The translations under genes were made by a program, and so were the position numbers. A DNA stretch of 64,000 nt from an uncultured Verrucomicrobiota bacterium. Its GTDB lineage: Bacteria > Verrucomicrobiota > Kiritimatiellia > CAJWTS01. Numbering within the stretch: the first letter of the stretch is position 1; each line of letters starts with the position of its first letter. The notes beneath the pieces were generated by a model. The model was not told the origin of the DNA and ran no database searches. It was given only the letters and a program-made list of their open reading frames with translations. The stretch is from NCBI GenBank assembly GCA_913047795.1, contig CAJWTS010000011.1, positions 5,232-69,231 on the forward strand, read 5' to 3'. Shown piece by piece: positions 5,212 through 64,000 of the stretch.

Positions 5212-6530
<1,319 letters not shown>

Positions 6531-50947: not shown

Positions 50948-51128
50948 ACGGAGCCGGCCAGACCAACAACAGAGGCCACAATGTGCTGCCATTTGGGCTT
51001 CATGTTCTACCCCTTTTTCTCAAAACCGAACATTGAGGTAACCTTTTTCTGGAAGCGGAGCGTTCGGAAATGCGGTTCGCCTATTTGTTCGACTCCTAGT
51101 GTGACAAGTTGTCGATGCGCGATAACCG

Positions 51129-51986
51129 CTATTCCGCCAGGAGCTCACGTACGATGTCGGCGTTCATGCCGACCTGATCCGCGTGCCGCTGGTACATTCC
51201 GACGTTGACGATGTCGGTCTGCTTGATCCGGTCGAAGGCAAACTTGAACGCGGCACGAATGTTTTCGGGCGTGTCGCACTTGCGCGCGGCGGCAAGAATC
51301 TTGTAGGCGATGCAGGGCTTGTCGGTGAACCGAGTGAACGCACAGGTCACTTCTCGGTCCTCGTCGTCGAATGGCTCTTCGGCCTGCTCGCCTTTGGCGA
51401 CCAGGTCACGATCAACCTTTGCCAGGTGGTAGAAGCAAGACATATAGAAGTCGATGTCCCAATCCTTGTCTTCGACGTAGCGCAGGATTTCCGGTAAATG
51501 CGCCGCAATGCCCACCATGGCGCCGGTATCGCGCATCGCCTTGAGATAATCCTCCACCTGATCGAATGTCCCGTTTTTCCAGTGCTGATCACTCATTGAG
51601 CCGTGGAAGTAGATCCCAATCGGGTCGAGGCTCGCAATGTCGCGGATGTTCTCGAACGGGTCCGGATGTTCACCCGCCGTCTGGCATATCCAGTTCATCG
51701 TGCCACCCCGCGCGCGATAGGCGCGGACCCTTTCGAAAATGATCTCATCGCCGCGAGTCTGCACCGTATTGATGCCGCACGCCTCGCTACGAAACCAGGT
51801 GGCGAGCGTGTTTTCGACCGAATGATATTCGCGCATCTCCGCATCGAGGTCGGCGCTGCGATGGGAGTAGCCGCGTATCGGGTTGCCGCCGATAATCAGT
51901 CGGGTGATATCGTGTTTGCCGAAACGAACAGTCGGCAGCGTTGCAGTGGCGGTGGTGCGCATAGAGGTCTCCGTGTCTTTGGCCAA
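51129..51986 (-). CDS. hypothetical protein
   Basis: 285 aa ORF with protein-like composition. No family recognised. Confidence 0.4.
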   Translation of the reverse strand: MAKDTETSMRTTATATLPTVRFGKHDITRLIIGGNPIRGYSHRSADLDAEMREYHSVENTLATWFRSEACGINTVQTRGDEIIFERVRAYRARGGTMNWICQTAGEHPDPFENIRDIASLDPIGIYFHGSMSDQHWKNGTFDQVEDYLKAMRDTGAMVGIAAHLPEILRYVEDKDWDIDFYMSCFYHLAKVDRDLVAKGEQAEEPFDDEDREVTCAFTRFTDKPCIAYKILAAARKCDTPENIRAAFKFAFDRIKQTDIVNVGMYQRHADQVGMNADIVRELLAE

Positions 51987-51988
51987 CG

Positions 51989-52996
51989 CTACGGGTCACG
52001 CGCGGCGGGTACGCCATCGCGTGGACCCGTTTGTTCGACGAGGGGTCTATCGACTCGTTGTTTCGTTTCGGAATCTTCTGATGAGATGACGAGAACCAGC
52101 CCTGGCATGAGCCAGATTAAGGCCGGCATGTAGTACCTGATCTCATGCCACATGGAGGTGAAAAAATGAAGAAGAAGCCACGGAACGCAACATGAGGCGA
52201 GTCGCCAATACGGTGCCGGTATTCGCCTTGCGCCGAGGAGCAAGAGGAAGGCGGGAGAGAGCATCAGCAGAAGGTCCATGTTGCCGACAGAGACACTCAA
52301 GTTTCGCGACAGGTACTTGAGGATATCAAGAAGATTTTCTGTGGTAGGCCAAATCAGCCGCAGGCCAAGAAAGACCAGAACCCAAGCTGCTGCAGAAAGG
52401 AGAAGCCATGTGCACTCTGATCGCCTAATTTGTGGGAGCCAGTAAAGGGCATAGGCATAAGGGATAAAGCACATGGTTTCTCTGTTCAGAGTACCCAGTA
52501 GAACTAGCGGAAGGAGTCCCGCGGGCCTCCGTGACAAGGTGGCGAGCAGCCCCAGACCAAAGAACGCCATTTCCAACACAGACGTCGGCTGATAGTAATA
52601 GTACCTGTATGTAAAGGGGATAAAAGCGGCTAGGGCTGTGGATGCAAGAGCAGCGGTTCTGTCTGGCCAAGCAAGGCGGAGTGCCAGAAATACAGCTAGA
52701 AAGGTTGCGAATATTGAAAGAAACCTGATTGCAGCGTAGATGCCCAGGAACAGAATCTTGTACATCTTGGTTCCAGGTTCAGTTCCCGACAAGCGGATCG
52801 TGATTTCAACCACAATTGGTTGTAGAACACGAAACTGATATGGAGCGGGTGCGGTGTGTGTAACGATGGCATGGTGGAGTCTCTGTTGGTCTTTGAACTT
52901 GGGCAGGTCTATCGCGTCGAGATGCATGCGCGTTCCGATTGCAGCAAGTATGACGAACCATATTATGATCGCCAGAAACGGGCGTTGGCGTTTCAT
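51989..52996 (-). CDS. hypothetical polytopic membrane protein (lower-GC gene)
   Basis: 335 aa with ~9 TM helices. GC is visibly lower than its neighbours. Confidence 0.4.
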   Translation of the reverse strand: MKRQRPFLAIIIWFVILAAIGTRMHLDAIDLPKFKDQQRLHHAIVTHTAPAPYQFRVLQPIVVEITIRLSGTEPGTKMYKILFLGIYAAIRFLSIFATFLAVFLALRLAWPDRTAALASTALAAFIPFTYRYYYYQPTSVLEMAFFGLGLLATLSRRPAGLLPLVLLGTLNRETMCFIPYAYALYWLPQIRRSECTWLLLSAAAWVLVFLGLRLIWPTTENLLDILKYLSRNLSVSVGNMDLLLMLSPAFLLLLGARRIPAPYWRLASCCVPWLLLHFFTSMWHEIRYYMPALIWLMPGLVLVISSEDSETKQRVDRPLVEQTGPRDGVPAARDP

Positions 52997-53757
52997 CTCT
53001 TCCTCCGTCGAACGCGAAGCTCAGGTGCGCGCGGCTCTGACGCGTCGCCTGCAGCGCTTGGTTGGGGGGCATGCACCGCCAGTTCCGCCAGAACACCGTC
53101 GGTTGTCTCGACACGTCCAAAGATACGTGCATGCATCAGTAGGGCCTCATCATGGGCGCGTTGGGTGAATGTCGCACAGGCATCTTCGCACAGGAGACTG
53201 TTGTAGCCTAGTTCCGCCGCAGCGCGGGCGGTTCCTAAGACGCACGCATCGGTCAGGATTCCCGTAATGACAAGGCTCCGGATGCCCATGTTCCGCAGAG
53301 CGTGATCAAGAAGACTGGCTGTGAACCCGCCGGAGGTGAGCTTGTCGACCACAAGGTCCGCCTCACCGGGGGACAACCTCTCGTCGATTTGGTAGCCGGG
53401 GCTGTCTCGATGCGATCTTGGCCCTCCGGCAGAGAAGTTCGCTTTCAGACGTTCCGTCATCTCGTCGCCGGAAGGCGTCACGTTGCCGTTACGAGTAAAC
53501 ACGATCTTTCGATTCTGACGCCGGAACAGTCCCATGAGTCGCCGGATATTCGGAACCACTGTCTCGTCAATACGCCGGTTCCAGTAACTGACGATCTGCG
53601 GATAGTGGGTGGCCAAAGGAGAATCCGGCTCGACCGTCATCTGGTCGGATTGCATGTCGACCACGATAAGTGCGGTCGACTTGGCATCGAGCACAAAGTC
53701 GGCGCTCATCACATCGAACGGCCATTCCGAATCGAGCTTCCGAGGATTCCATTTCAT
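52993..53757 (-). CDS. isochorismatase-family cysteine hydrolase
   Basis: ALIVVDMQ N-terminal motif and ITGILTDACV catalytic-Cys motif. Start chosen at Met 53757. Confidence 0.7.
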   Translation of the reverse strand: MKWNPRKLDSEWPFDVMSADFVLDAKSTALIVVDMQSDQMTVEPDSPLATHYPQIVSYWNRRIDETVVPNIRRLMGLFRRQNRKIVFTRNGNVTPSGDEMTERLKANFSAGGPRSHRDSPGYQIDERLSPGEADLVVDKLTSGGFTASLLDHALRNMGIRSLVITGILTDACVLGTARAAAELGYNSLLCEDACATFTQRAHDEALLMHARIFGRVETTDGVLAELAVHAPQPSAAGDASEPRAPELRVRRRKR

Positions 53758-53829
53758 GTGGTGTCTTATCTCCCAACGTTGGAAATCACGGGCGCGCGCT
53801 TCGCGCGTCCTGTGCATTGACTTGTTAGG

Positions 53830-54552
53830 CTAGTTTTCGTACCCCAACCTGCTAAGGGTGTCAGGTGGAAAAAGCTCACGGAAAAGATCGTAGTGATGAG
53901 GCTGGAACAGAGAATGATAAGTTTTAGTGTCCAATTGCGATCTGGTCACATACGCCGGATAGTTCACTATGGTATTAAGATCAAATGGCTTAGATACTCT
54001 CAACAGAATCTCTTCTGAAAATTCAAGGTGTCCAGCGATTCTGGAAATTGTCGATTGGTAGTCATTTTCAAATTCTTCAAGTTTCAAATTGAGGAATCTT
54101 CTGTCGGAAAAGGGAAAGTGATAGATATTCATGATTACTCCTCTAGATAGATTTTGCATTTCAAAAGAAATACCATCTTCAGATTGGAGGCGCTCTTTGT
54201 ATGTCTTTCCCGTATCTTTCCACTCTGTATTAACCCAGGGTTCATCAATTCTTTGATGCCATCGATATGCAGATGCAATGATTTCATAAGGATGACGGAT
54301 TACGTGTATCCCTTTTACTGTTAAATTTTCTATTCGCAGATTACCGCCCCACGATACGAATTTGTAATCAACAGATTGATCCACTTCTGCACTACTTTCA
54401 TAGACAATCACGTCTGCGTCATTCGGAACTTCCGAAGTGGTAGAAAGGTCGTAATAAGTCAAACCCACCTCTTGAGCAATGGCTCGAGCTATTCTGCCGC
54501 ACAGGTGATGACCAGTTTTGTGATGTGTGATAAAAATTCGTTTGAACATCAT
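53830..54552 (-). CDS. putative sulfotransferase-family protein (low-GC gene)
   Basis: 240 aa with an N-terminal phosphate-binding-loop-like FITHHKTGHH and a sulfotransferase-like size and fold. GC is roughly 40% against ~63% for the surroundings. Confidence 0.45.
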   Translation of the reverse strand: MMFKRIFITHHKTGHHLCGRIARAIAQEVGLTYYDLSTTSEVPNDADVIVYESSAEVDQSVDYKFVSWGGNLRIENLTVKGIHVIRHPYEIIASAYRWHQRIDEPWVNTEWKDTGKTYKERLQSEDGISFEMQNLSRGVIMNIYHFPFSDRRFLNLKLEEFENDYQSTISRIAGHLEFSEEILLRVSKPFDLNTIVNYPAYVTRSQLDTKTYHSLFQPHHYDLFRELFPPDTLSRLGYEN

Positions 54553-54644
54553 ACTTCCCGTAATTTTGAAGCCTAACGTTGCGTTTAGCCGCGGGGCGAT
54601 CTCGCGTCAGGGACGGTCACATGACCGACGGAGCCGTTCCGTGG

Positions 54645-55823
54645 TTAGCGCTTCAGATCCAGCCCCAGGATACTGAAGAAGAAACTGAACAGGACCGTCT
54701 GGCAGCCCATGATCAGGGAGGTGACGGCGGGAATGACGGTGCGCAGGGTCTGTGCGGGAATCAGCGGGCCGAACGATTGACTGCGCCAATGCATCACGGC
54801 CGCAATCGATCCACCGATGCCGATCAGCACCAGCACCGCGCCGATCACGAGGCCGAGCTCCAGCGTGAATGTGTCGAAGATCTTCAGGAACTTTTCTTCG
54901 CGAGGACGTAAACCGGAGACCATGGCGAAGGTCTTGGAGAGGAACGCGAAGAGAACGGCCTGGAAGCCGATCAGGACCGCGGCGGCGGAGAACATCATGG
55001 TGTGGATTCCGAGGTTGGCATCGCCAACACGTTGATCGCCGGGCAGAAGCCAGGCGCCGGTCGCGAGGCCCGCAATCATTAAGAGCATGCCGGGGTACAG
55101 GAATAACCAGCGTGGGCTGTAGAGCAGCATGAACCGCAGGTGCCGCCAGCCGTCGCGCCAGGTGCGCAGATGCGGTGCGCGCGTGCGCCCGTCGGGTGAC
55201 AGCGTGGTTGGAACCTCGGCGATGCGACTGTTGTGCAGCGTCGCCTTGACCACCATTTCGCTGGCGAATTCCATGCCGGTCGATTGCAGGTCCCAGGTTG
55301 CAGCTGCCTGCTTGCTGAACCCGCGCAGGCCGCAATGAAAGTCGCTGCTGGGACAATTGAAAAATAGGCGACCGATCCAACTCAGCACGGGATTGCCAAG
55401 GTAGCGGTGCAGGAACGGCATGGCACCCGGCGCGATGCCGCCCTTGAAGCGGTTGCCCATGACGAGGTCGTATCCTTCGCGCAGTTTTTCCACATAGCGC
55501 GGCATGTGGCTGAAATCATAGCTGTCGTCGGCGTCGCCCATGAGGATGTAGGTGCTGCGCGCCGCCGCGATGCCGCCCAGCAACGCGCTGCCGTATCCCT
55601 TGTTTTCGATATCGACAACGCGCGCACCGGCGTCGGTTGCCATTTTCTGGGATCCATCCGTGCTGCCGTTGTCGGCGATGAGGACCTCGCCCGGAGCACC
55701 GAAATCATCGATGGCCGCTTTCGCTTTGCGGACACAGGTCTCGATGGTCTCTGCCTCGTTGAGGCAGGGCATCAGGATCGTGATTTCGAGGGAATCAGCC
55801 TTGGATGTGTGCTGGTCAGTCAT
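54645..55823 (-). CDS. family 2 glycosyltransferase with C-terminal transmembrane domain (DPM/GtrB-like)
   Basis: ILMPCLNEAE, IADNGSTDGS and a DAD motif (GDADDS), followed by ~4 TM helices. Start chosen at ATG 55823. Confidence 0.7.
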   Translation of the reverse strand: MTDQHTSKADSLEITILMPCLNEAETIETCVRKAKAAIDDFGAPGEVLIADNGSTDGSQKMATDAGARVVDIENKGYGSALLGGIAAARSTYILMGDADDSYDFSHMPRYVEKLREGYDLVMGNRFKGGIAPGAMPFLHRYLGNPVLSWIGRLFFNCPSSDFHCGLRGFSKQAAATWDLQSTGMEFASEMVVKATLHNSRIAEVPTTLSPDGRTRAPHLRTWRDGWRHLRFMLLYSPRWLFLYPGMLLMIAGLATGAWLLPGDQRVGDANLGIHTMMFSAAAVLIGFQAVLFAFLSKTFAMVSGLRPREEKFLKIFDTFTLELGLVIGAVLVLIGIGGSIAAVMHWRSQSFGPLIPAQTLRTVIPAVTSLIMGCQTVLFSFFFSILGLDLKR

Positions 55824-56299
55824 TTGGAGCCCGCTGAGGCGACTATCCAAGCATAGGGATTCCCATTCCGGCAAGCGTAATGGCAGGCACGGTTGTCATC
55901 AGGACGTGGGGTGCGTGGATGTGTCCACGGGGTACCTGCTAAGGGTAGCGGAAGCGGTCCTCGCCTGGCCTAAAGGTCCGTGAAGAAGATGATCGGACCC
56001 GCGACGCCGAAGAACAAGCTCGCGCCACACCGGATATGACGACAGGGGAGAATAGCGCGGCGATCAGAAACCGTATGGCGAGGCTGGTAAGACGGCCTCG
56101 ATATTCGTTCATGGGCCGTGCCGGGTTGGATGCGCATCTCCCGCGCGTCCGGACGCCTGTGTTCATCAGCCCAAGACCGGGAAAGGACCCGGCTTCGACT
56201 CTTGCCTTTTTAATGGCTATCGGGCACGATTCGTCCCCCTTCCGGATCGGCCGCAGGCTGGAGCCGGGCCGGGCGAGCAACCATTCGGGCTGGCGTGTT

Positions 56300-57199
56300 A
56301 TGTGTGGTATCGTAGGCTTATATCTGAAGAACGAGGCGTTGCAGCCTCGGATTGGTGAGTTGGTTACACCCATGCTGGATCGCATGGGCGATCGTGGTCC
56401 GGATAGCGCCGGGCTGGCCATCTATCGCGACGAAGTTCCCGCCGACAGCATTAAACTGACGCTTCGGCGCCTTTCGGATGAACTTGACTGGTCGGACGTG
56501 GATACGGCTCTGACCAAACGCTTTGCTGGTGATGTTCCCCTGCGCGAGAACGGAAGCTACGCCGTTGTCGTGGTGACGGGTACCGAGCAAGCCGTCGTTG
56601 ACTACCTTGCGGAAGCCTACCCCTCGGTGCGGATCATGAGTGCCGGGCGCAAAATCGAGATATTCAAGGAAGCCGGTCGTCCGGAAGCCATCTCGAAGAA
56701 ATTTGGTTTTGACGGTCTTTATGGCTCGCATGCCATCGGTCATACGCGCATGGCGACAGAGAGCGCGGTGACAACCGACGGCTCACATCCGTTTTCGACC
56801 GGGATGGACCTGTGCCTCGTTCATAACGGTAGTCTCAGCAACTATTTCGCACTGCGCGAGAATTTGCAGCGGCAGGGGATCGAGTTTCGGACCGAAAACG
56901 ATTCAGAAGTCGCGGCGGGTTACCTGATGTGGCGCATGCGCGAAGGCGATAGCCTGCGGGCGGCGCTGGAATCGGCGCTCGCGGATCTCGACGGTTTCTA
57001 CACGTTTGCAATCGGAACCGCCAACGGTTTCGCCGTCTTGCGCGATCCCATCGCTTGTAAGCCCGCCGTGATGGTCGAGACCGATGACTACGTGGCCATG
57101 GCATCGGAGTATCGATCGCTTGCGGATCTGCCCGGTATCGAGGCCGCGCAACAATGGGAACCGGAACCCGGCCTGGTCTATTCGTGGGGCGACGACTAA
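56300..57199 (+). CDS. mgsA: class-II glutamine amidotransferase domain protein; candidate N-methylglutamate synthase subunit A
   Basis: MCGIVGL N-terminal nucleophile. Standalone GltS-type GAT domain, ~300 aa. First in the synteny GAT-GXGXG-FMN-GS-soxBDA. Confidence 0.65.
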   Translation: MCGIVGLYLKNEALQPRIGELVTPMLDRMGDRGPDSAGLAIYRDEVPADSIKLTLRRLSDELDWSDVDTALTKRFAGDVPLRENGSYAVVVVTGTEQAVVDYLAEAYPSVRIMSAGRKIEIFKEAGRPEAISKKFGFDGLYGSHAIGHTRMATESAVTTDGSHPFSTGMDLCLVHNGSLSNYFALRENLQRQGIEFRTENDSEVAAGYLMWRMREGDSLRAALESALADLDGFYTFAIGTANGFAVLRDPIACKPAVMVETDDYVAMASEYRSLADLPGIEAAQQWEPEPGLVYSWGDD

Positions 57200-57236
57200 G
57201 TCGAAGGGAGTCGATATCAAGGAGCAGACGATAGAC

Positions 57237-57911
57237 TTGAGTGCCGACAGCGTACGGGCTTTGAATCAACGCCTGCACGACCTGACCGAGGCGAGCGCGG
57301 ACAGTACCTGGCGCATTGCGCAGCCACGCGGAGCGCACGCGATTGCCTGTGGTATGCGCGTCGCGGCCGATATCGTCATCGATGGGCACGCCGGCTACTA
57401 CTGTGCCGGCATGAATCAGCTGGCACGGATCACCGTTAACGGCAACGTCGGCGTCGGTGTTGCGGAGAACATGATGTCCGGCGTCGTGCGCGTCAAGGGG
57501 CAGGCCAGCCAATCGGCGGGCGCCACCGCGCATGGTGGTCTGCTCGTTATCGAGGGCGATGCGGCGGCGCGCTGCGGGATCTCGCTCAAGGGCGGCAACA
57601 TCGTGGTCGGCGGCTCCGCCGGGCACATGACCGGGTTTCTGTCGCAGGCGGGCAATATCGTTATTTGCGGTGACGCGCGGGAAGCCCTGGGTGATTCGCT
57701 CTATGAAACCCATATTTATGTGCGTGGCAGGGCGGAAGGATTGGGTGCCGATTGCATGGAGAAGGATCTGCGCGACGAACATCGTGAGGATCTCGCGGGT
57801 CTGTTGGAGCAGGCGGAGATCGACGCCGATCCCGCGACGTTTCGTCGCTACGGTTCGGCGCGAACGCTTTATACATATAAAGCCGACAACGCGGAGGTCG
57901 CGGCACAATGA
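57237..57911 (+). CDS. mgsB: GXGXG-motif glutamate-synthase C-terminal-domain-like protein; candidate N-methylglutamate synthase subunit B
   Basis: Right-handed beta-helix repeats (GNVGVGVAENMMSG, GNIVVGGSAGHMTG). The start is uncertain; TTG at 57237 is tentative. Confidence 0.6.
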   Translation: MSADSVRALNQRLHDLTEASADSTWRIAQPRGAHAIACGMRVAADIVIDGHAGYYCAGMNQLARITVNGNVGVGVAENMMSGVVRVKGQASQSAGATAHGGLLVIEGDAAARCGISLKGGNIVVGGSAGHMTGFLSQAGNIVICGDAREALGDSLYETHIYVRGRAEGLGADCMEKDLRDEHREDLAGLLEQAEIDADPATFRRYGSARTLYTYKADNAEVAAQ

Positions 57912-59242
57912 CGGCGAGCGGTCAGCCCGAACCCGGCATGCGCGAGTCGGCCTCGTTCGATCGCAACGTGATCCACGAGATCCAGCGCGCGGCGCGGACC
58001 GGTGTTTATGACATTCGTGGATTCGGGGCGAAGCGGCATTTGCCGCATTTCGACGATCTCGTTTTTCTCGGCGCCAGCATGTCGCGCTATCCACTTGAAG
58101 GATACCGGGAACGATGCGATTGCGATGTGACGCTCGGAACGCGTTTCGCTACGAATCCGATTAAGATTGAAATTCCGATCACCATCGCCGGCATGAGCTT
58201 TGGCGCGCTATCGGGTCCCGCCAAGGAGGCCCTCGGCCGCGGCGCCACCGCTGCTGGTACCAGCACAACGACCGGTGACGGTGGCATGACGCAGGAAGAG
58301 CGGGGTCATTCCGAAAAGCTTGTTTACCAGATCTTGCCATCGCGTTACGGCATGAACCCCGACGATCTGCGCAAGGCGGATGCGATCGAGGTTGTGCTGG
58401 GCCAGGGCGCCAAGCCGGGTGGCGGCGGGATGTTGATGGGGCAGAAAATTTCCGATCGCGTGGCGGAGATGCGCACGCTTCCCAGGAACATCGATCAGCG
58501 TTCGGCCTGCCGACATCCGGATTGGACCGGGCCGGACGATCTCGCGATCAAAATTATCGAACTGCGCGAGATTACGGACTGGAAGGTGCCTGTTTACATT
58601 AAGATTGGTGCGACGCGGACCTACTACGACGTGAAGTTGGCGGTCAAGGCCGGGGCGGATGTCGTTGTGCTGGACGGTATGCAGGGCGGCACCGGTGCGA
58701 CCCAGGAAGTTTTTATCGAGCACGTCGGCATCCCGACCATGCCCGCGCTGCGCCAGGCCGTCCAGGCGCTCAAGGAAATGGACATGCATCGCAAGGTGCA
58801 GTTGATCGTGTCGGGCGGCATACGTACCGGTGCGGACGTGGCCAAGGCGCTCGCCATGGGCGCCGACGCCGTCTCGATCGGTGTTGCAGCCCTGGTCGCA
58901 TTGGGGGACAACAGCCCGGCGCATCAGTCGGACTATGAGAAGCTTGGCTCCGGCGCGGGATACTATGACGACTGGCACGAGGGCCGGTGTCCGGCCGGCA
59001 TCTCCACGCAGGACGAAGAACTCGCGAACCGCCTGGATCCCGAATTGGGCGGGCGCCGGTTGGCCAACTACCTGCGTGTGCTGGCCGTTGAGTGCCAGAC
59101 GATTGCACGTGCCTGTGGCAAGAGCCATGTGCACAATCTCGAACCGGAAGACCTGGTAGCCCTGACCGTGGAATCCGCTGCCATGGCCGGCGTTCCGCTC
59201 GCCGGCACGAACTGGGTGCCTGGATCGGGGCATGGTGAGTGA
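57908..59242 (+). CDS. mgsC: glutamate-synthase FMN-binding-domain protein; candidate N-methylglutamate synthase subunit C
   Basis: ATGA overlap with the upstream gene. GltS FMN/Fe-S TIM-barrel domain motifs (IAGMSFGALS, VVLDGMQGGTGA, SGGIRTGADV). Confidence 0.7.
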   Translation: MTASGQPEPGMRESASFDRNVIHEIQRAARTGVYDIRGFGAKRHLPHFDDLVFLGASMSRYPLEGYRERCDCDVTLGTRFATNPIKIEIPITIAGMSFGALSGPAKEALGRGATAAGTSTTTGDGGMTQEERGHSEKLVYQILPSRYGMNPDDLRKADAIEVVLGQGAKPGGGGMLMGQKISDRVAEMRTLPRNIDQRSACRHPDWTGPDDLAIKIIELREITDWKVPVYIKIGATRTYYDVKLAVKAGADVVVLDGMQGGTGATQEVFIEHVGIPTMPALRQAVQALKEMDMHRKVQLIVSGGIRTGADVAKALAMGADAVSIGVAALVALGDNSPAHQSDYEKLGSGAGYYDDWHEGRCPAGISTQDEELANRLDPELGGRRLANYLRVLAVECQTIARACGKSHVHNLEPEDLVALTVESAAMAGVPLAGTNWVPGSGHGE

Positions 59243-59431
59243 TGCGGGCTTCAGGGAGGCGGACAAGCGAATGCACTCCAGGGCGACGCGTGGATTGAGC
59301 AGTCAGCGGCAGGCTGGAGCGAAGCACAGGACCTGAAGCCTGACCACGGAACCCGGCTGCGATCAGGTCTTAAGACTTACAAGGAAATCGAAAAAAATCA
59401 CCACACGACGTCAAACGAAGAGGAGATAGCC

Positions 59432-60790
59432 ATGCGTACACGCGAAGAAGTAAAACAGCAGATGGCAGAAGACGAGATCGAATTTATCCTGGTTCAATTT
59501 GTAGATGCGACCGGAGCAGCGAAGGTCAAGATGATACCGGTCTCCAGTTTTGACGATGCGGTCGATGAAGGCGCGGGGTTCGCCGGTGCGGCGGTCTGGG
59601 GCGTGGGGCAGGGGCCGCATTCGCACGACATGCTCGCGCGTGTGGATGTCGATACCTACACGCCGATCCCATGGCAGCCGAATACGGCGCGCTTCGCGAG
59701 TGATCTCTTCGTCGATGGTGAATCGTACCCGAATTGCGCGCGTACAAATTTCAAGCGTGTCCTGGCGGACACCCATGAACAGGGATTCATCTTCAACGTC
59801 GGCATGGAGCCGGAGCATTTCCTCGTCACGCGTAATGAGGATGGCTCGATTCAGCCCTGGGATCCCGACGGTGTCGATTCGCTGTCCAAGCCCTGCTACG
59901 ACTTCCGGTCGATGGCGCCCGCTATGGCGTACCTACAGGAGTTGACCACCTCCCTGAATGGACTCGGCTGGGGCGTTTATCAATGCGACCACGAGGACGC
60001 CAATGGGCAGTTCGAGGTCAATTTCGACTACGCCGACGCGTTGACGACCGCCGACCGGATTATTTTCTTCAAGATGGCAACGTCCCAGATTGCGAAAAAA
60101 TATGGAGCGATTGCAACGCATATGCCGAAGCCGTTCAGCGATCGAACCGGCAGCGGGCTGCACGTGCACTATCACCTTGCCGATGCCGAGACGGGTTCCG
60201 GGGTCTTTGGGGACGAGAATGATCCGCGCGGGCTGGGTTGCTCCGAACTCGGGTATCACTTTATCGGCGGTGTGTTGCATCATGCGCGCGCGCTGGCGGC
60301 GGTGACCTGTCCGACGGTGAATTGCTACAAACGTCTGCAACTCGGTTCGGGGTTGTACTCGAGCCGATCGGGATTTACATGGACGCCGGCGTTCGTCACC
60401 TATGGCGACAATAATCGTACGCAGATGATCCGCACGGCGGGACCCGGGCATTTCGAGGATCGCACGGTCTCCGCCGCCGCCAATCCCTACCTGGCCCTGG
60501 CTGCCTACCTGGCGGCCGGGATGGATGGCATCGCGAATAAGATCGATCCGGGCGACCCCAACCTGGGCAATATGTATGAGCGTCCGCTCGAGGAGATCCG
60601 TGCCAGGGGCATTCGGATCCTGCCGCAGTCACTCTGGGAAGCCCTGGCCGAACTGCGCGGCGACGAGGTCATCAAATCCGCCCTGGGCGTGATCGCGGAT
60701 GACTTTATCGAGATGAAGACGCGCGAGTGGGAGACCTACGATCAGCAGGTGACGTCCTGGGAACTCGACGAGTACCTGACCTACTTCTAA
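59432..60790 (+). CDS. gmaS: glutamine-synthetase-family enzyme; candidate gamma-glutamylmethylamide synthetase
   Basis: GAGGAG RBS. GS catalytic-domain similarity (GMEPEHFL, GSGLHVHYHL), 452 aa. Position between mgs-like and sox-like genes. Confidence 0.65.
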   Translation: MRTREEVKQQMAEDEIEFILVQFVDATGAAKVKMIPVSSFDDAVDEGAGFAGAAVWGVGQGPHSHDMLARVDVDTYTPIPWQPNTARFASDLFVDGESYPNCARTNFKRVLADTHEQGFIFNVGMEPEHFLVTRNEDGSIQPWDPDGVDSLSKPCYDFRSMAPAMAYLQELTTSLNGLGWGVYQCDHEDANGQFEVNFDYADALTTADRIIFFKMATSQIAKKYGAIATHMPKPFSDRTGSGLHVHYHLADAETGSGVFGDENDPRGLGCSELGYHFIGGVLHHARALAAVTCPTVNCYKRLQLGSGLYSSRSGFTWTPAFVTYGDNNRTQMIRTAGPGHFEDRTVSAAANPYLALAAYLAAGMDGIANKIDPGDPNLGNMYERPLEEIRARGIRILPQSLWEALAELRGDEVIKSALGVIADDFIEMKTREWETYDQQVTSWELDEYLTYF

Positions 60791-60998
60791 TCCTCGTGAT
60801 CGACCTGGGACGACCGGTTCGGCCGGGATCAATGAATCGGACCTTCGTGCGATCTTAACATTTTTCCGGTAGCCTGATGCCCGTTGATGGAGAGAATTCC
60901 AGCGAACGTCGCCCGCTGCGGTCACGGAGGAGGGCCAGGATCTCTGGTTCTGATCCGGGTGCGACCGGGTTACGCGCAATGCAAGGGCTTACACGACC

Positions 60999-62243
60999 AT
61001 GCCACTGAATCTGCTTAAATTCGCATTCCGTAGCGACTACGGCGAGCCGCGCATGTTTCGTCGGCCGGACCGCCTTCGCGAGGAGTACGACGTCGTCATC
61101 ATCGGCGGTGGCGGGCATGGTCTTGCAGCGGCTTACTATCTTGCAGTCGAACACGGCATTACCAACGTTGCGGTTCTGGAGAAATCGTACATCGGGTCCG
61201 GCGGCACGGGACGTAACACGGCCATTGTGCGCTCGAACTACCTGACGGAGGAGGGCGCGCGGTTCTACCAGGCCAGCGTCGACCTCTTTCGTGACCTGTC
61301 ACGCACCCTCGATCTCAACCTGTTTTATTCCGAACGAGGGCATTTCACCATGGCACATTCATTGGCCTCGCTGCGTACGCAGCGATGGCGTGCCGAGGTG
61401 AACAAACACCTTGGCATTGATTCGCAAGAGGTGGGGCCGGACTTCATTAAGGAGAAGATTCCCGAGATCGACCTGACCTGTGGCGGGCATCAGCCGCCGA
61501 TTTGTGGTGCGCTCTACCACCCGCCCGGCGCGATCGCCCGGCATGATGCGGTGGCCTGGGGCTATGCGCGCGGCGCGGATCAACGTGGCTGCGAGATTCA
61601 TCAGGGCGTCTCGGTGACGGACATTGAAGTGCGCGACGGCGCTGTCACCGGTGTGCATACGGATAAGGGCTTTGTGAAGACAACGCGCGTGCTCTCGGCC
61701 GTGGCGGGTTGGACGACCCATATCCAAAAGATGGTGGGGCTGCGCTCGCCACTCGTGATTCATCCGCTGCAGGCTCTGGTCACCGAGCCGTTGAAGCCGT
61801 GGTTGAACGCGATTGTTGTATCGGCGTCCCTGCATACGTATATCAGTCAGTCATCGCGCGGGGAGCTTGTGGCGGGTGCATCGCTCGATCCTTATGAGCT
61901 CATCTCGATGCGTTCCACGCTCGATTTCGCCGAAACGATGGCCGGTCACATGATGGATCTGTTCCCGTTCCTCGGGGACATCAAGATCATGCGCCAATGG
62001 GCCGGCCTCTGCGACATGACTCCGGACTTCTCGCCGATCATGGGGACCACCGCGATCGACGGATTTTTCCTCGACGCCGGCTGGGGTACCTGGGGATTCA
62101 AGGCGACGCCCATCAGTGGGTATGCCATGGCACACACCATTGCGACCGGCGATAACCACGATTTGATTCGTCCGTTCAACTTGTCCCGTTTTTCGGAATT
62201 CGATCAAGTCGGCGAGAAGGGCGCTGCGTCGGTCGGACATTAG
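60999..62243 (+). CDS. mgdA: sarcosine-oxidase beta-subunit family flavoprotein; candidate N-methylglutamate dehydrogenase subunit A
   Basis: VVIIGGGGHGLAAAYYL FAD motif, ~415 aa, heterotetrameric SoxB-like. Confidence 0.75.
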   Translation: MPLNLLKFAFRSDYGEPRMFRRPDRLREEYDVVIIGGGGHGLAAAYYLAVEHGITNVAVLEKSYIGSGGTGRNTAIVRSNYLTEEGARFYQASVDLFRDLSRTLDLNLFYSERGHFTMAHSLASLRTQRWRAEVNKHLGIDSQEVGPDFIKEKIPEIDLTCGGHQPPICGALYHPPGAIARHDAVAWGYARGADQRGCEIHQGVSVTDIEVRDGAVTGVHTDKGFVKTTRVLSAVAGWTTHIQKMVGLRSPLVIHPLQALVTEPLKPWLNAIVVSASLHTYISQSSRGELVAGASLDPYELISMRSTLDFAETMAGHMMDLFPFLGDIKIMRQWAGLCDMTPDFSPIMGTTAIDGFFLDAGWGTWGFKATPISGYAMAHTIATGDNHDLIRPFNLSRFSEFDQVGEKGAASVGH

Positions 62244-62245
62244 CC

Positions 62246-62509
62246 ATGAAGATACTGACATGTCCCGTTAATGGCCCGCGGCCGATCCAGGAGTTCACGT
62301 ATGGCGGCGAAGTCCGCGACATGCCTTGTCCCGACACGAGCACCGACACGCAGTGGGCGGATTATATCTTTAACCGCACGGGCGAACCGGGTGTGCGACG
62401 CGAGTGGTGGCACCACGGTCCGTCGGGAGTCTGGTTCGTGGCGGAGCGCGATATCATCGGGGATAACGTCCTGAAGACCTATCTCTGGTCCGCGCGGGAG
62501 ACGCCGTGA
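62246..62509 (+). CDS. mgdB: sarcosine-oxidase delta-subunit family protein
   Basis: 87 aa. MKILTCPVNGPRPIQEF is the typical SoxD N-terminus. Confidence 0.7.
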   Translation: MKILTCPVNGPRPIQEFTYGGEVRDMPCPDTSTDTQWADYIFNRTGEPGVRREWWHHGPSGVWFVAERDIIGDNVLKTYLWSARETP

Positions 62510-63468
62510 TTCGACGCCTTCCATCACAACCAGGGGAATGGATCGATCGCGGTCGGGAGATTGCGTTTGAATTCGAGGGTCGGCTGTTGACCGGTGCGCA
62601 CGGGGATACGATCAATAGCGCGCTCTGTGCCAACGGGGTCCGCGTCATCGGTCGCAGCTTCAAATATCATCGGCCGCGCGGCGTCTACAGTATGGCGGGT
62701 CATGATGCCGCCGGATTGTTCACGGATGGCGAACGTACGAATATGCGTGGCGATGCGGTTGCCCTTGTCGACGGCATGTGCCTGAGGGCGGTCAACACAT
62801 TCGGCAATGTGGAGCGTGACCGCATGAGTATCACGGGGCGCTTTGCGAAACTGATGCCCGTGGGATTTTACTATAAAGCCTTCTTTCGTCCGCGGTGGAT
62901 GTTCCCCTGGTTTGAAAGTTTGATTCGGCGTATCGCCGGCCAGGGCGCGATTAACTCCGCTTTTCCGGCAACGAAGAGCCCCAAGGACTATGCGTGGTGC
63001 GACGTGCTCGTCGTCGGTGGCGGGCCGTCGGGCCTGAGCGCTGCACTTGCCGCAGCTGATGCCGGGGCAGGGGTACTGTTGGTCGATGAGAATGCGCGTT
63101 TGGGCGGGTCTCTTGCATGGGGCGCTACCGTGCGGAAAGATGACGAGGGTCTTGTTGATCGCGTCCATGCGCATGACTCGATCGAGGTGCGCTGTGGGAC
63201 TTCCGTCGCGGGAGTCTACACGGATCATTGGGTGGCGCTTGTTGATGCCGACCGGCTGACCAAGTTGCGGGCGAAGGCGATCGTGTTCGCGACCGGGGCG
63301 ATCGAGCAGCCTGCCGTCTTCCAGAATAACGATCTTCCGGGTGTCATGCTGGCTTCTGCAGCGCAGCGACTGGTGCGGCTCTATTCCGTCAAACCGTTCG
63401 ATCGCGTCGTGACGTTGACCGTCCTCGAGGATCACAATCTCATCTGGCTCTACGAGACGAGTTGGTAA
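62506..63468 (+). CDS. mgdC: sarcosine-oxidase alpha-subunit family protein, 3'-truncated (320 aa of ~1000)
   Basis: N-terminal SoxA similarity (LTGAHGDTINSALCANGV, VLVVGGGPSGLSAALAAA). The ORF ends at 63468, exactly where base composition switches to AT-rich. Confidence 0.6.
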   Translation: MIRRLPSQPGEWIDRGREIAFEFEGRLLTGAHGDTINSALCANGVRVIGRSFKYHRPRGVYSMAGHDAAGLFTDGERTNMRGDAVALVDGMCLRAVNTFGNVERDRMSITGRFAKLMPVGFYYKAFFRPRWMFPWFESLIRRIAGQGAINSAFPATKSPKDYAWCDVLVVGGGPSGLSAALAAADAGAGVLLVDENARLGGSLAWGATVRKDDEGLVDRVHAHDSIEVRCGTSVAGVYTDHWVALVDADRLTKLRAKAIVFATGAIEQPAVFQNNDLPGVMLASAAQRLVRLYSVKPFDRVVTLTVLEDHNLIWLYETSW

Positions 63469-63522
63469 AGGAAGCGGTGAGAGTTCTCAATGAATGAGCG
63501 ACGTTATTCGAGGAAGAGATAG

Positions 63523-64000
63523 ATGCCATTTGATATTTCAAAATTACTGATTTCACTCCTTCTGGTTTGTACCTTCATGACGATTGACCTCTGGACGAAG
63601 CGTGAAGTCTGGAAATTGGATAGTTCATCAAGGGCATCGTTAATTTCTGGTGACAAGGTAACGATAACGGCGCCCGTAAGAAATTACGGCGGTCCCGGAA
63701 TTTTTAGTCACGACACTCCCGATCAGAGCTTCCGCTACTGGCATATTTTTGTCGCCTTAACATCATTGGCATGCTTTTGGTGTCTCGTGCTTTCTGACGA
63801 ACGCATCTGGCATTCCGCGATTGGCGCGATATCTGTCGGAGGCATGTGGGGGAACGTTTATGAAATGTTGATTTACGGTAGTGTGACGGATTTTATCCGT
63901 TTGAACGGATCGGGGGTCCTGAACGACTTAACTTTTAATGTTGCCGACGTCTTTATATTTGCAGGTCTTCCACTCTTCTACCTCACTAGCGAAATGCGGC
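63523..64000 (+). CDS. lspA: lipoprotein signal peptidase (signal peptidase II)-like, 3'-partial, on AT-rich DNA
   Basis: Own translation of an open frame absent from the ORF track (no stop before the window end). AGGAAGAG RBS. Conserved LspA blocks GGMWGNVYEMLIYGSVTDF and FNVADVFIFAG. GC and codon usage differ sharply from the rest of the window. Confidence 0.5.
   Translation, partial: MPFDISKLLISLLLVCTFMTIDLWTKREVWKLDSSSRASLISGDKVTITAPVRNYGGPGIFSHDTPDQSFRYWHIFVALTSLACFWCLVLSDERIWHSAIGAISVGGMWGNVYEMLIYGSVTDFIRLNGSGVLNDLTFNVADVFIFAGLPLFYLTSEMR

Follow-up and report, generated by a model that had tools for sequence, protein, structure and literature searches.

N-methylglutamate dehydrogenase and heterotetrameric sarcosine oxidase are among the described systems closest to the locus reported here, and their alpha subunit, encoded by mgdC, belongs to the SoxA family. 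For LspA, signal peptidase II, a catalytic dyad of Asp124 and Asp143 has been described in Pseudomonas aeruginosa (PMC9360617). Short-read metagenome assemblers are documented to produce interspecies misassemblies, which are routinely counted in mock-community benchmarks (PMC8682757). Our analysis concerned 64,000 nucleotides (nt) of DNA, called the window below, from an uncultured Verrucomicrobiota bacterium (NCBI GenBank assembly GCA_913047795.1, contig CAJWTS010000011.1, forward-strand positions 5,232 to 69,231). Near the 3' end of the window, an mgdC-like open reading frame (ORF) breaks off and is followed by an LspA-like gene. An earlier reading made from the sequence only had offered three origins for this arrangement: foreign DNA inserted into mgdC with inactivation of the pathway, a genomic-island boundary, or an assembly chimera. 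The last of these is favored here, given two parent sequences that continue differently, a short run shared by both at the switch, and a junction recorded on one contig only. Thus, the 69,637-nt source contig is probably an inter-genome assembly chimera with no biological gene disruption.

Breakpoint and parent sequences

The mgdC-like ORF (62506..63468, plus strand) starts with GTG and encodes 320 amino acids (aa). Its Pfam domains are Fer2_4 and the start of a FAD/NAD-binding Rossmann domain only, which is a SoxA-type N-terminus. The sequence-only reading correctly described an alpha-like ORF that stops after 320 codons at 63468; the intact homologue has 960 aa. It was also correct in calling a breakpoint of some kind, since homology switches at 63421/63422. 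The break had been placed at the stop codon (~63468), but the true breakpoint is 47 nt 5' of the stop codon, and the final 15 codons of the 320-aa ORF are already foreign.

The left parent (A) was found in independent contigs, which are numbered with the prefix L here. Positions 50999-63421 of the window are 100.000% identical to L001 (ENA ERZ27286455, 24.7 kb) over 12,423 nt without a gap, and beyond 63421 the identity to L001 falls to 24%, which is the random level. L002 (JGI 3300020389) is 99.98% identical to the left side of the window. At the break, the window reads GTTGACCG followed by TCCTCGAGG, while L001 and L002 read GTTGACCG followed by CCAATAGCG; the intact mgdC context around the site is KPFDRVVTLTANSDGYR. 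L001 likewise matches the cluster upstream of mgdC at 100%, L002, L091, and L094 contain this cluster too, and identical copies of its SoxB-like protein are encoded on several public contigs.

In L001, mgdC is intact, encoding 960 aa with SO_alpha_A3 and GCV_T domains, and is followed by a 185-aa gene in the gamma-subunit position. L094 (JGI 3300046467), from a 98.5% identical strain, also has an intact 960-aa mgdC with all domains and is collinear with L001 for 7 kb through the site. Another ENA contig (24.8 kb) encodes the same 960-aa protein. L002 and L091 (ENA ERZ908597/ERR599008) keep to the intact mgdC for 19 nt and 17 nt past the site, respectively, and then end. Therefore, the intact-mgdC path is represented in five independent contigs of one population that are 98.5-100% identical (L001, L094, L002, L091, and the further ENA contig). 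A homologue search with the 320-aa fusion listed matches of at most 61% identity; as the identical 960-aa protein was not among them, this search is uninformative on other fused forms.

The ends of L002 and L091 fall at the window-equivalent positions 63440 and 63438, and the chance of a contig end so near to the site is ~0.4%. This suggests that, in the read set of these two contigs, coverage or the assembly graph is weak at the junction site.

The native context of the right parent (B) was found in L004, which was the only contig matched by a 36-nt probe from just right of the junction among 241 million JGI metagenome records. Further B contigs were found through homologues of the LspA-like protein (L005, L087, L088, and L006) and through members of its 90% cluster (L092 and L093). 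The window is identical to L004 at 48 of 48 nt over 63422-63469. It matches L093 at 96.0% over 63400-64000 and L092 at 95.2% over 63397-64000, and L005 is 94% identical to it from 63474 onward. The GC content of the B contigs is 50-51.5%. In L004, L087, L088, L092, and L093, the bases right of the junction close an intact ORF that precedes the LspA-like gene. This upstream gene of B encodes 272 aa (family range 262-296 aa) and its product ends RLRLDR(V/L)VT(L/M)TVLE(DHN/EDS)LIWL(Y/L)ETSW before the stop. The window keeps only its last 15 codons (VLEDHNLIWLYETSW and the stop), in frame after mgdC codon 305. The first base of the Val codon of VLEDHNLIWLYETSW is 63421. The LspA-like fragment of the window is identical to residues 1-159 of P0138, a 208-aa protein encoded on the 69,637-nt source contig.

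Composition changes at the same place. The GC content is 60.5% from 62506 to 63421 and 46.3% from 63422 to 64000, and in 200-nt sliding windows it goes from 0.615 down to 0.44-0.455 across the junction. The abrupt drop that the earlier reading had put at ~63% to ~45% is, therefore, real. Its third positions rich in A/T were overstated, as the GC content of third codon positions is 0.67 to the left and 0.51 to the right of the breakpoint. A likelihood change-point calculated from GC only falls at 63430 (support interval 63373-63489; lnL gain 17.8). Among 1,257 windows of 579 nt, with a mean GC of 0.593 and a standard deviation (SD) of 0.033, the right part lies ~3.9 SD below the mean, and one further locus, at 53.6-54.2 kb, is equally GC-poor. 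Codon log-odds were -25.8 bits for the LspA-like fragment, which fits the B contigs, and the genuine rest of mgdC scored +164.6 bits.

The LspA-like gene that had been read in the AT-rich stretch was borne out by Pfam. Its ORF runs from an ATG at 63523 to the window end (159 codons) and matches Peptidase_A8 at 3.3e-16 with 60 bits against a cutoff of 25. Probably, it was missing from the ORF track only because it passes the window end.

The junction itself was not found in any other assembly by the 36-nt probe in JGI metagenomes, in protein clusters, or in a gene-position index. For both the fused 320-aa ORF (P0139) and the LspA-like protein in its exact form (P0138), the sole record is the contig of 69,637 nt, and exact look-up of both in the gene-position index gave no record. 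Nor were relatives found in which an equally short mgdC precedes lspA, which would speak for a native arrangement. A search for the reciprocal junction with a synthetic peptide (B-left joined to A-right) returned the B-left fragment only; the intact mgdC control was also missed by this search.

Shared run and origin of the join

The switch falls within a 22-nt run, GATCGCGTCGTGACGTTGACCG, that encodes DRVVTLT in both of the unrelated genes; mgdC and the 272-aa gene have no other stretch in common. The run is identical in the mgdC of L001, L002, and L091, and the B gene around it reads RLRLDRVVTLTVLEDHN. In L093, it reads GACCGCGTCGTGACGTTGACCG, which matches at 21 of 22 positions with 19 nt exact, and L004 and L092 match at 20 of 22. 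GATCGCGTCGTGACGTTGACCG is single-copy in the window and, in the 1.5 Mb of fetched loci, is confined to the mgdC copies and L004. By our calculation, the probability of an identity of at least 19 nt at an arbitrary join of unrelated sequences is ~4^-19. Therefore, the join was directed by the shared identity, through either the k-mers of an assembler or recombination machinery.

Of these, we consider an assembler the probable agent. Organism A is a marine bacterium of ~60% GC with an intact mgsABC-gmaS-mgdABCD cluster, and organism B is a ~50%-GC organism with a gene pair consisting of the 272-aa membrane protein and then the LspA-like protein. They share nearly the same 22 bases because both proteins by chance contain DRVVTLT and use the same codons for it. 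At a k of ~21 or less, a de Bruijn assembler would have one shared node at this run. If the continuation of A was poorly covered in the read set, its short stub would have been clipped as a tip, and the walk through the graph would have left A at the run and continued into B. The outcome would be an in-frame fusion ORF of 320 aa that is fictitious, with what looks like a GC cliff. The ends of L002 and L091, 17-19 nt past the run, fit thin coverage of A with tip clipping. In such a chimera, soft-clipped reads would be expected to continue from GTTGACCG into CCAATAGCGACGG.

Several points weigh against an assembler as the agent. The usual minimal k of assemblers is 21, and position 63402 is C in L092, L093, and L004 compared to T in mgdC, which leaves 19 exact bases. 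A join by 21-mers would need a B strain with T, a variant that exists in the more distant L087. The foreign segment is no tiny terminal stub: with the whole LspA-like gene on the contig, it measures at least 728 nt and may reach ~6.2 kb. The sequence was examined to 64000, and mgdC might resume beyond this position. The coincident ends of L002 and L091 may count only once, as both may come from the same Tara read set. Lastly, the in silico origin is an inference from sequence comparison.

A chimeric molecule made in vitro would leave the same trace. Amplification chimeras form preferentially at short shared sequences, and the join has such a run. Template switching there during polymerase chain reaction (PCR) or multiple displacement amplification (MDA), followed by faithful assembly, is nevertheless very unlikely to be the cause, as a single chimeric molecule seldom outcompetes the correct assembly path. 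This origin is indistinguishable from an assembler-made join by sequence alone and is equally an artifact.

Another possible explanation is that the junction is real and very recent, made by short-homology (19-22 nt) or illegitimate recombination with B DNA, for example after natural transformation. This would have left only the N-terminal 305 aa of mgdC, extended by 15 foreign aa, and inactivated the N-methylglutamate dehydrogenase. We regard it as unlikely, though the most credible of the alternatives. An identity of 19-22 nt is near the minimal length for RecA-type pairing, but joins at long chance identity are systematic in k-mer assemblers and rare in vivo. The public contig does carry a clean in-frame junction with at least 728 nt of foreign sequence; the junction and the fused protein are on this one contig, compared to five contigs on the intact path. 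Two other assemblies break at the site, which could reflect a polymorphic population, but over 12.4 kb the flank does not differ at all from that of intact-gene strains, which would require an extremely recent event. Furthermore, the B gene pair, which is otherwise always contiguous, is cut mid-gene, and features of mobile elements are absent.

A foreign insertion that inactivates the pathway, as had been proposed, is without positive support, since five contigs carry or follow the intact mgdC. The short mgdC should not be taken for a pathway inactivation because the population carries the complete mgsABC-gmaS-mgdABCD cluster. If the junction were real, a marine methylamine user otherwise identical to its relatives over at least 12 kb would recently have gained at least 0.7 kb from an unrelated uncultured lineage. 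Its mgdC would have been destroyed and a divergent LspA-like gene gained, in a natural inter-lineage transfer anchored on minimal homology.

An identical core in both partners is the classical att signature, and the shared run could be taken for one. Under site-specific integration of an island, prophage, or integrative and conjugative element (ICE), the 19-22-nt run ending the 272-aa gene would be the attP core and mgdC a fortuitous attB. A distant homologue of the LspA-like gene does lie ~5 kb from a tyrosine integrase in L006. No integrase or recombinase was found in the 579 nt right of the junction, around the homologous site of L004 (~4.4 kb upstream and 8.9 kb downstream; 13.4 kb of contig), or in L092 and L093. 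The neighboring genes look chromosomal (Sel1, trypsin-PDZ, VWA/YfbK, and ARPP-1), and the presumed attP would sit inside the conserved coding sequence of an operon-like gene pair. The B contexts gave no PHROG or PADLOC matches, and the LspA-like gene had no relatives in IMG/VR, PLSDB, or INPHARED. The window contains no tRNA or tmRNA, no Rfam family was found, and there was no att-like repeat, with the 22-mer being single-copy within the window. Integration is, therefore, highly improbable and ranks last among the explanations weighed.

An insertion sequence (IS) or transposon finds no better footing: no IS-like inverted or direct repeats were present at the junction and no transposase was found. 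To the right of the junction, an ordinary gene ends and the LspA-like gene follows. With no integrase, tRNA, att-like repeat, or IS end, and with the cut mid-ORF in the foreign gene, the suggested genomic-island boundary lacks positive support as well.

An assembly chimera, thus, remains the probable explanation, and the LspA-like gene most likely belongs to the other organism, of ~50% GC, and is not attributable to this genome. Assembly is the most likely source of the "truncated mgdC", the "pathway inactivation", and the "island boundary", which probably carry no biological weight. For quality control, this means that a public contig, apparently part of a metagenome-assembled genome (MAG), seems to carry up to ~6 kb of foreign DNA. 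If the contig is chimeric, the 320-aa fusion protein among its deposited proteins is fictitious, and inferences on gene content, horizontal gene transfer (HGT), or metabolism drawn from the contig end would mislead. The locus also serves as a worked example of spotting chimeric joins without reads, by matching each side to independent contigs and finding a shared run of about k-mer size.

Features of the window and neighboring observations

The coordinates of the features near the junction are shown in Table 1.

Table 1. Features near the junction, in window coordinates
Feature	Coordinates	Strand	Basis and remarks
Upstream N-methylglutamate-pathway cluster	56036..62509	+	Native, ~60% GC; Pfam and NCBIfam matches
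GATase-like gene, then GXGXG-domain gene	in 56036..62509	+	Pfam/NCBIfam
GltB-like gene	57908-59242	+	Pfam/NCBIfam
GmaS-like type III glutamine-synthetase homologue	59432-60790	+	Pfam/NCBIfam
SoxB-like gene (mgdA)	60999-62243	+	Pfam/NCBIfam
SoxD-like gene (mgdB)	62246-62509	+	Pfam/NCBIfam
mgdC-like codons 1-305 and first base of codon 306; genuine left (A) sequence	62506..63421	+	Fer2_4 and FAD domains; 100.000% to L001, L089, L090, L091
Crossover zone, 22-nt run GATCGCGTCGTGACGTTGACCG encoding DRVVTLT	63400..63421	+	Common to both parents
Foreign tail of fused ORF, VLEDHNLIWLYETSW and stop	63422..63468	+	Last 15 codons of the 262-296-aa membrane-protein gene of organism B; first base of its Val codon (63421) lies inside the shared run
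Intergenic spacer of organism B	63469..63522	+	Collinear, 94-96% to L005, L092, L093
Divergent LspA-like gene of organism B, first 159 of 208 codons	63523..64000	+	PF01252, 3.3e-16; runs past the window end

For the N-terminal part of mgdC (62506-63421), the best named matches were partial proteins from MAGs of Pirellulaceae/Planctomycetota at 58-61% identity, and an alphaproteobacterial protein (MarineAlpha10) matched at 49%. In the spacer of B, a mini-ORF of 10 codons, MNERRYSRKR and a stop, lies at 63490-63522, with an overlap (TAGATG) between its stop and the ATG that starts the LspA-like ORF. The DNA of this mini-ORF region is 94-96% conserved in L005, L092, and L093.

The LspA-like proteins form a small and divergent family of 208 aa (window 63523-64000; L093 1582-3081; L004 3644-5196; L087 51-1521; L092 1-783). 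Their gene is always directly 3' of the gene for the 262-296-aa multi-pass membrane protein, which has a strongly conserved C-terminus (RLRLDRVVTLTVLEDHNLIWLYETSW) and no Pfam, PHROG, or PADLOC match. The two may be a dedicated protease-substrate or protease-partner pair. Genes of the ARPP-1 (PF20208), trypsin-like/PDZ, VWA/YfbK, Sel1, or CHAT type recur in the neighborhoods of the pair (L004 6442-13417; L092 1537-2598; L006 3700-13653). In L004, six co-directional ORFs without a detectable family precede the pair. Among 185,579 GTDB species representatives, there was no close relative of the LspA-like protein; the matches were distant, mostly housekeeping lspA with at most 55% identity over short segments, and mainly from Rhodobacteraceae.

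The other GC-poor locus of the window is an islet at 53500-54700, flanked by a gene of the isochorismatase family and one for a GT2 glycosyltransferase, and its GC content is lowest (39%) near 53900. A 239-aa ORF in the islet (53830-54552, minus strand) gives only a sub-threshold hint of Ntox30 (E=0.006), and ~90 nt (54553-54644) separate this ORF from the GT2 gene. In public contigs, a 100-aa gene alone is annotated in the islet and ~0.5 kb is left unannotated. We considered the islet (53.5-54.7 kb) as a second chimeric patch and rejected this, as it is also present in L001 and L002 and is, therefore, genuine.

Comparison with known systems

The N-terminal 305 aa of the window's mgdC, with their Fer2_4 and FAD-binding domains, resemble the alpha subunit of the SoxA family (mgdC; TIGR01372), and the order GmaS-like, SoxB-like, SoxD-like, SoxA-like is that of N-methylglutamate dehydrogenase and heterotetrameric sarcosine oxidase. 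The intact 960-aa homologue aligns to soxA end to end. Its soxA score is 817 bits against an NCBIfam cutoff of 1164, as expected of a SoxA-family paralogue and not of a true sarcosine oxidase. The mgdC of the window differs in that the C-terminal 655 aa, with SO_alpha_A3 and GCV_T, are replaced by 15 foreign residues.

Compared to LspA (Peptidase_A8; PDB 5DIR/9EMZ), the LspA-like protein keeps the DxxTK, NxG, GGxxGN, VxDF, and FNxAD motifs. It differs in having GNVYEM instead of GNLYDR (GNxYDR) and a C-terminal segment of ~50 additional aa, and it scores 29 bits against a cutoff of 73.95 for NCBIfam lspA (TIGR00077), compared to 60 against 25 for Pfam PF01252. D123 (SVTDFI) and D142 (FNVAD) align to the catalytic dyad of 9emz_A/5dir_A and are invariant in six family members. 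The replacement of GNLYDR by GNVYEM might be taken as the loss of a catalytic Asp in this family. This was rejected, as the dyad lies in VVDFI and FNLAD, which are both conserved (PDB chain; PMC9360617).

The locus shares with the boundary of a genomic island or prophage an abrupt drop in GC and genes of foreign affinity. It differs from one in having no integrase, tRNA target, att repeat, or phage or plasmid relatives, and in a boundary that lies mid-gene in both genes. Compared to interspecies misassemblies, the exact match to the closest B relatives sampled is 19 nt long, slightly below the usual minimal k of 21, and the chimeric part is maybe several kb and not a short terminal stub. In the other respects compared, the locus resembles them. 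Independent contigs match each of the two sides and diverge from each other past the join, the point of change sits in a short run common to both parents and of roughly k-mer length, composition and codon usage disagree between the two sides, and the junction is present in one assembly only.

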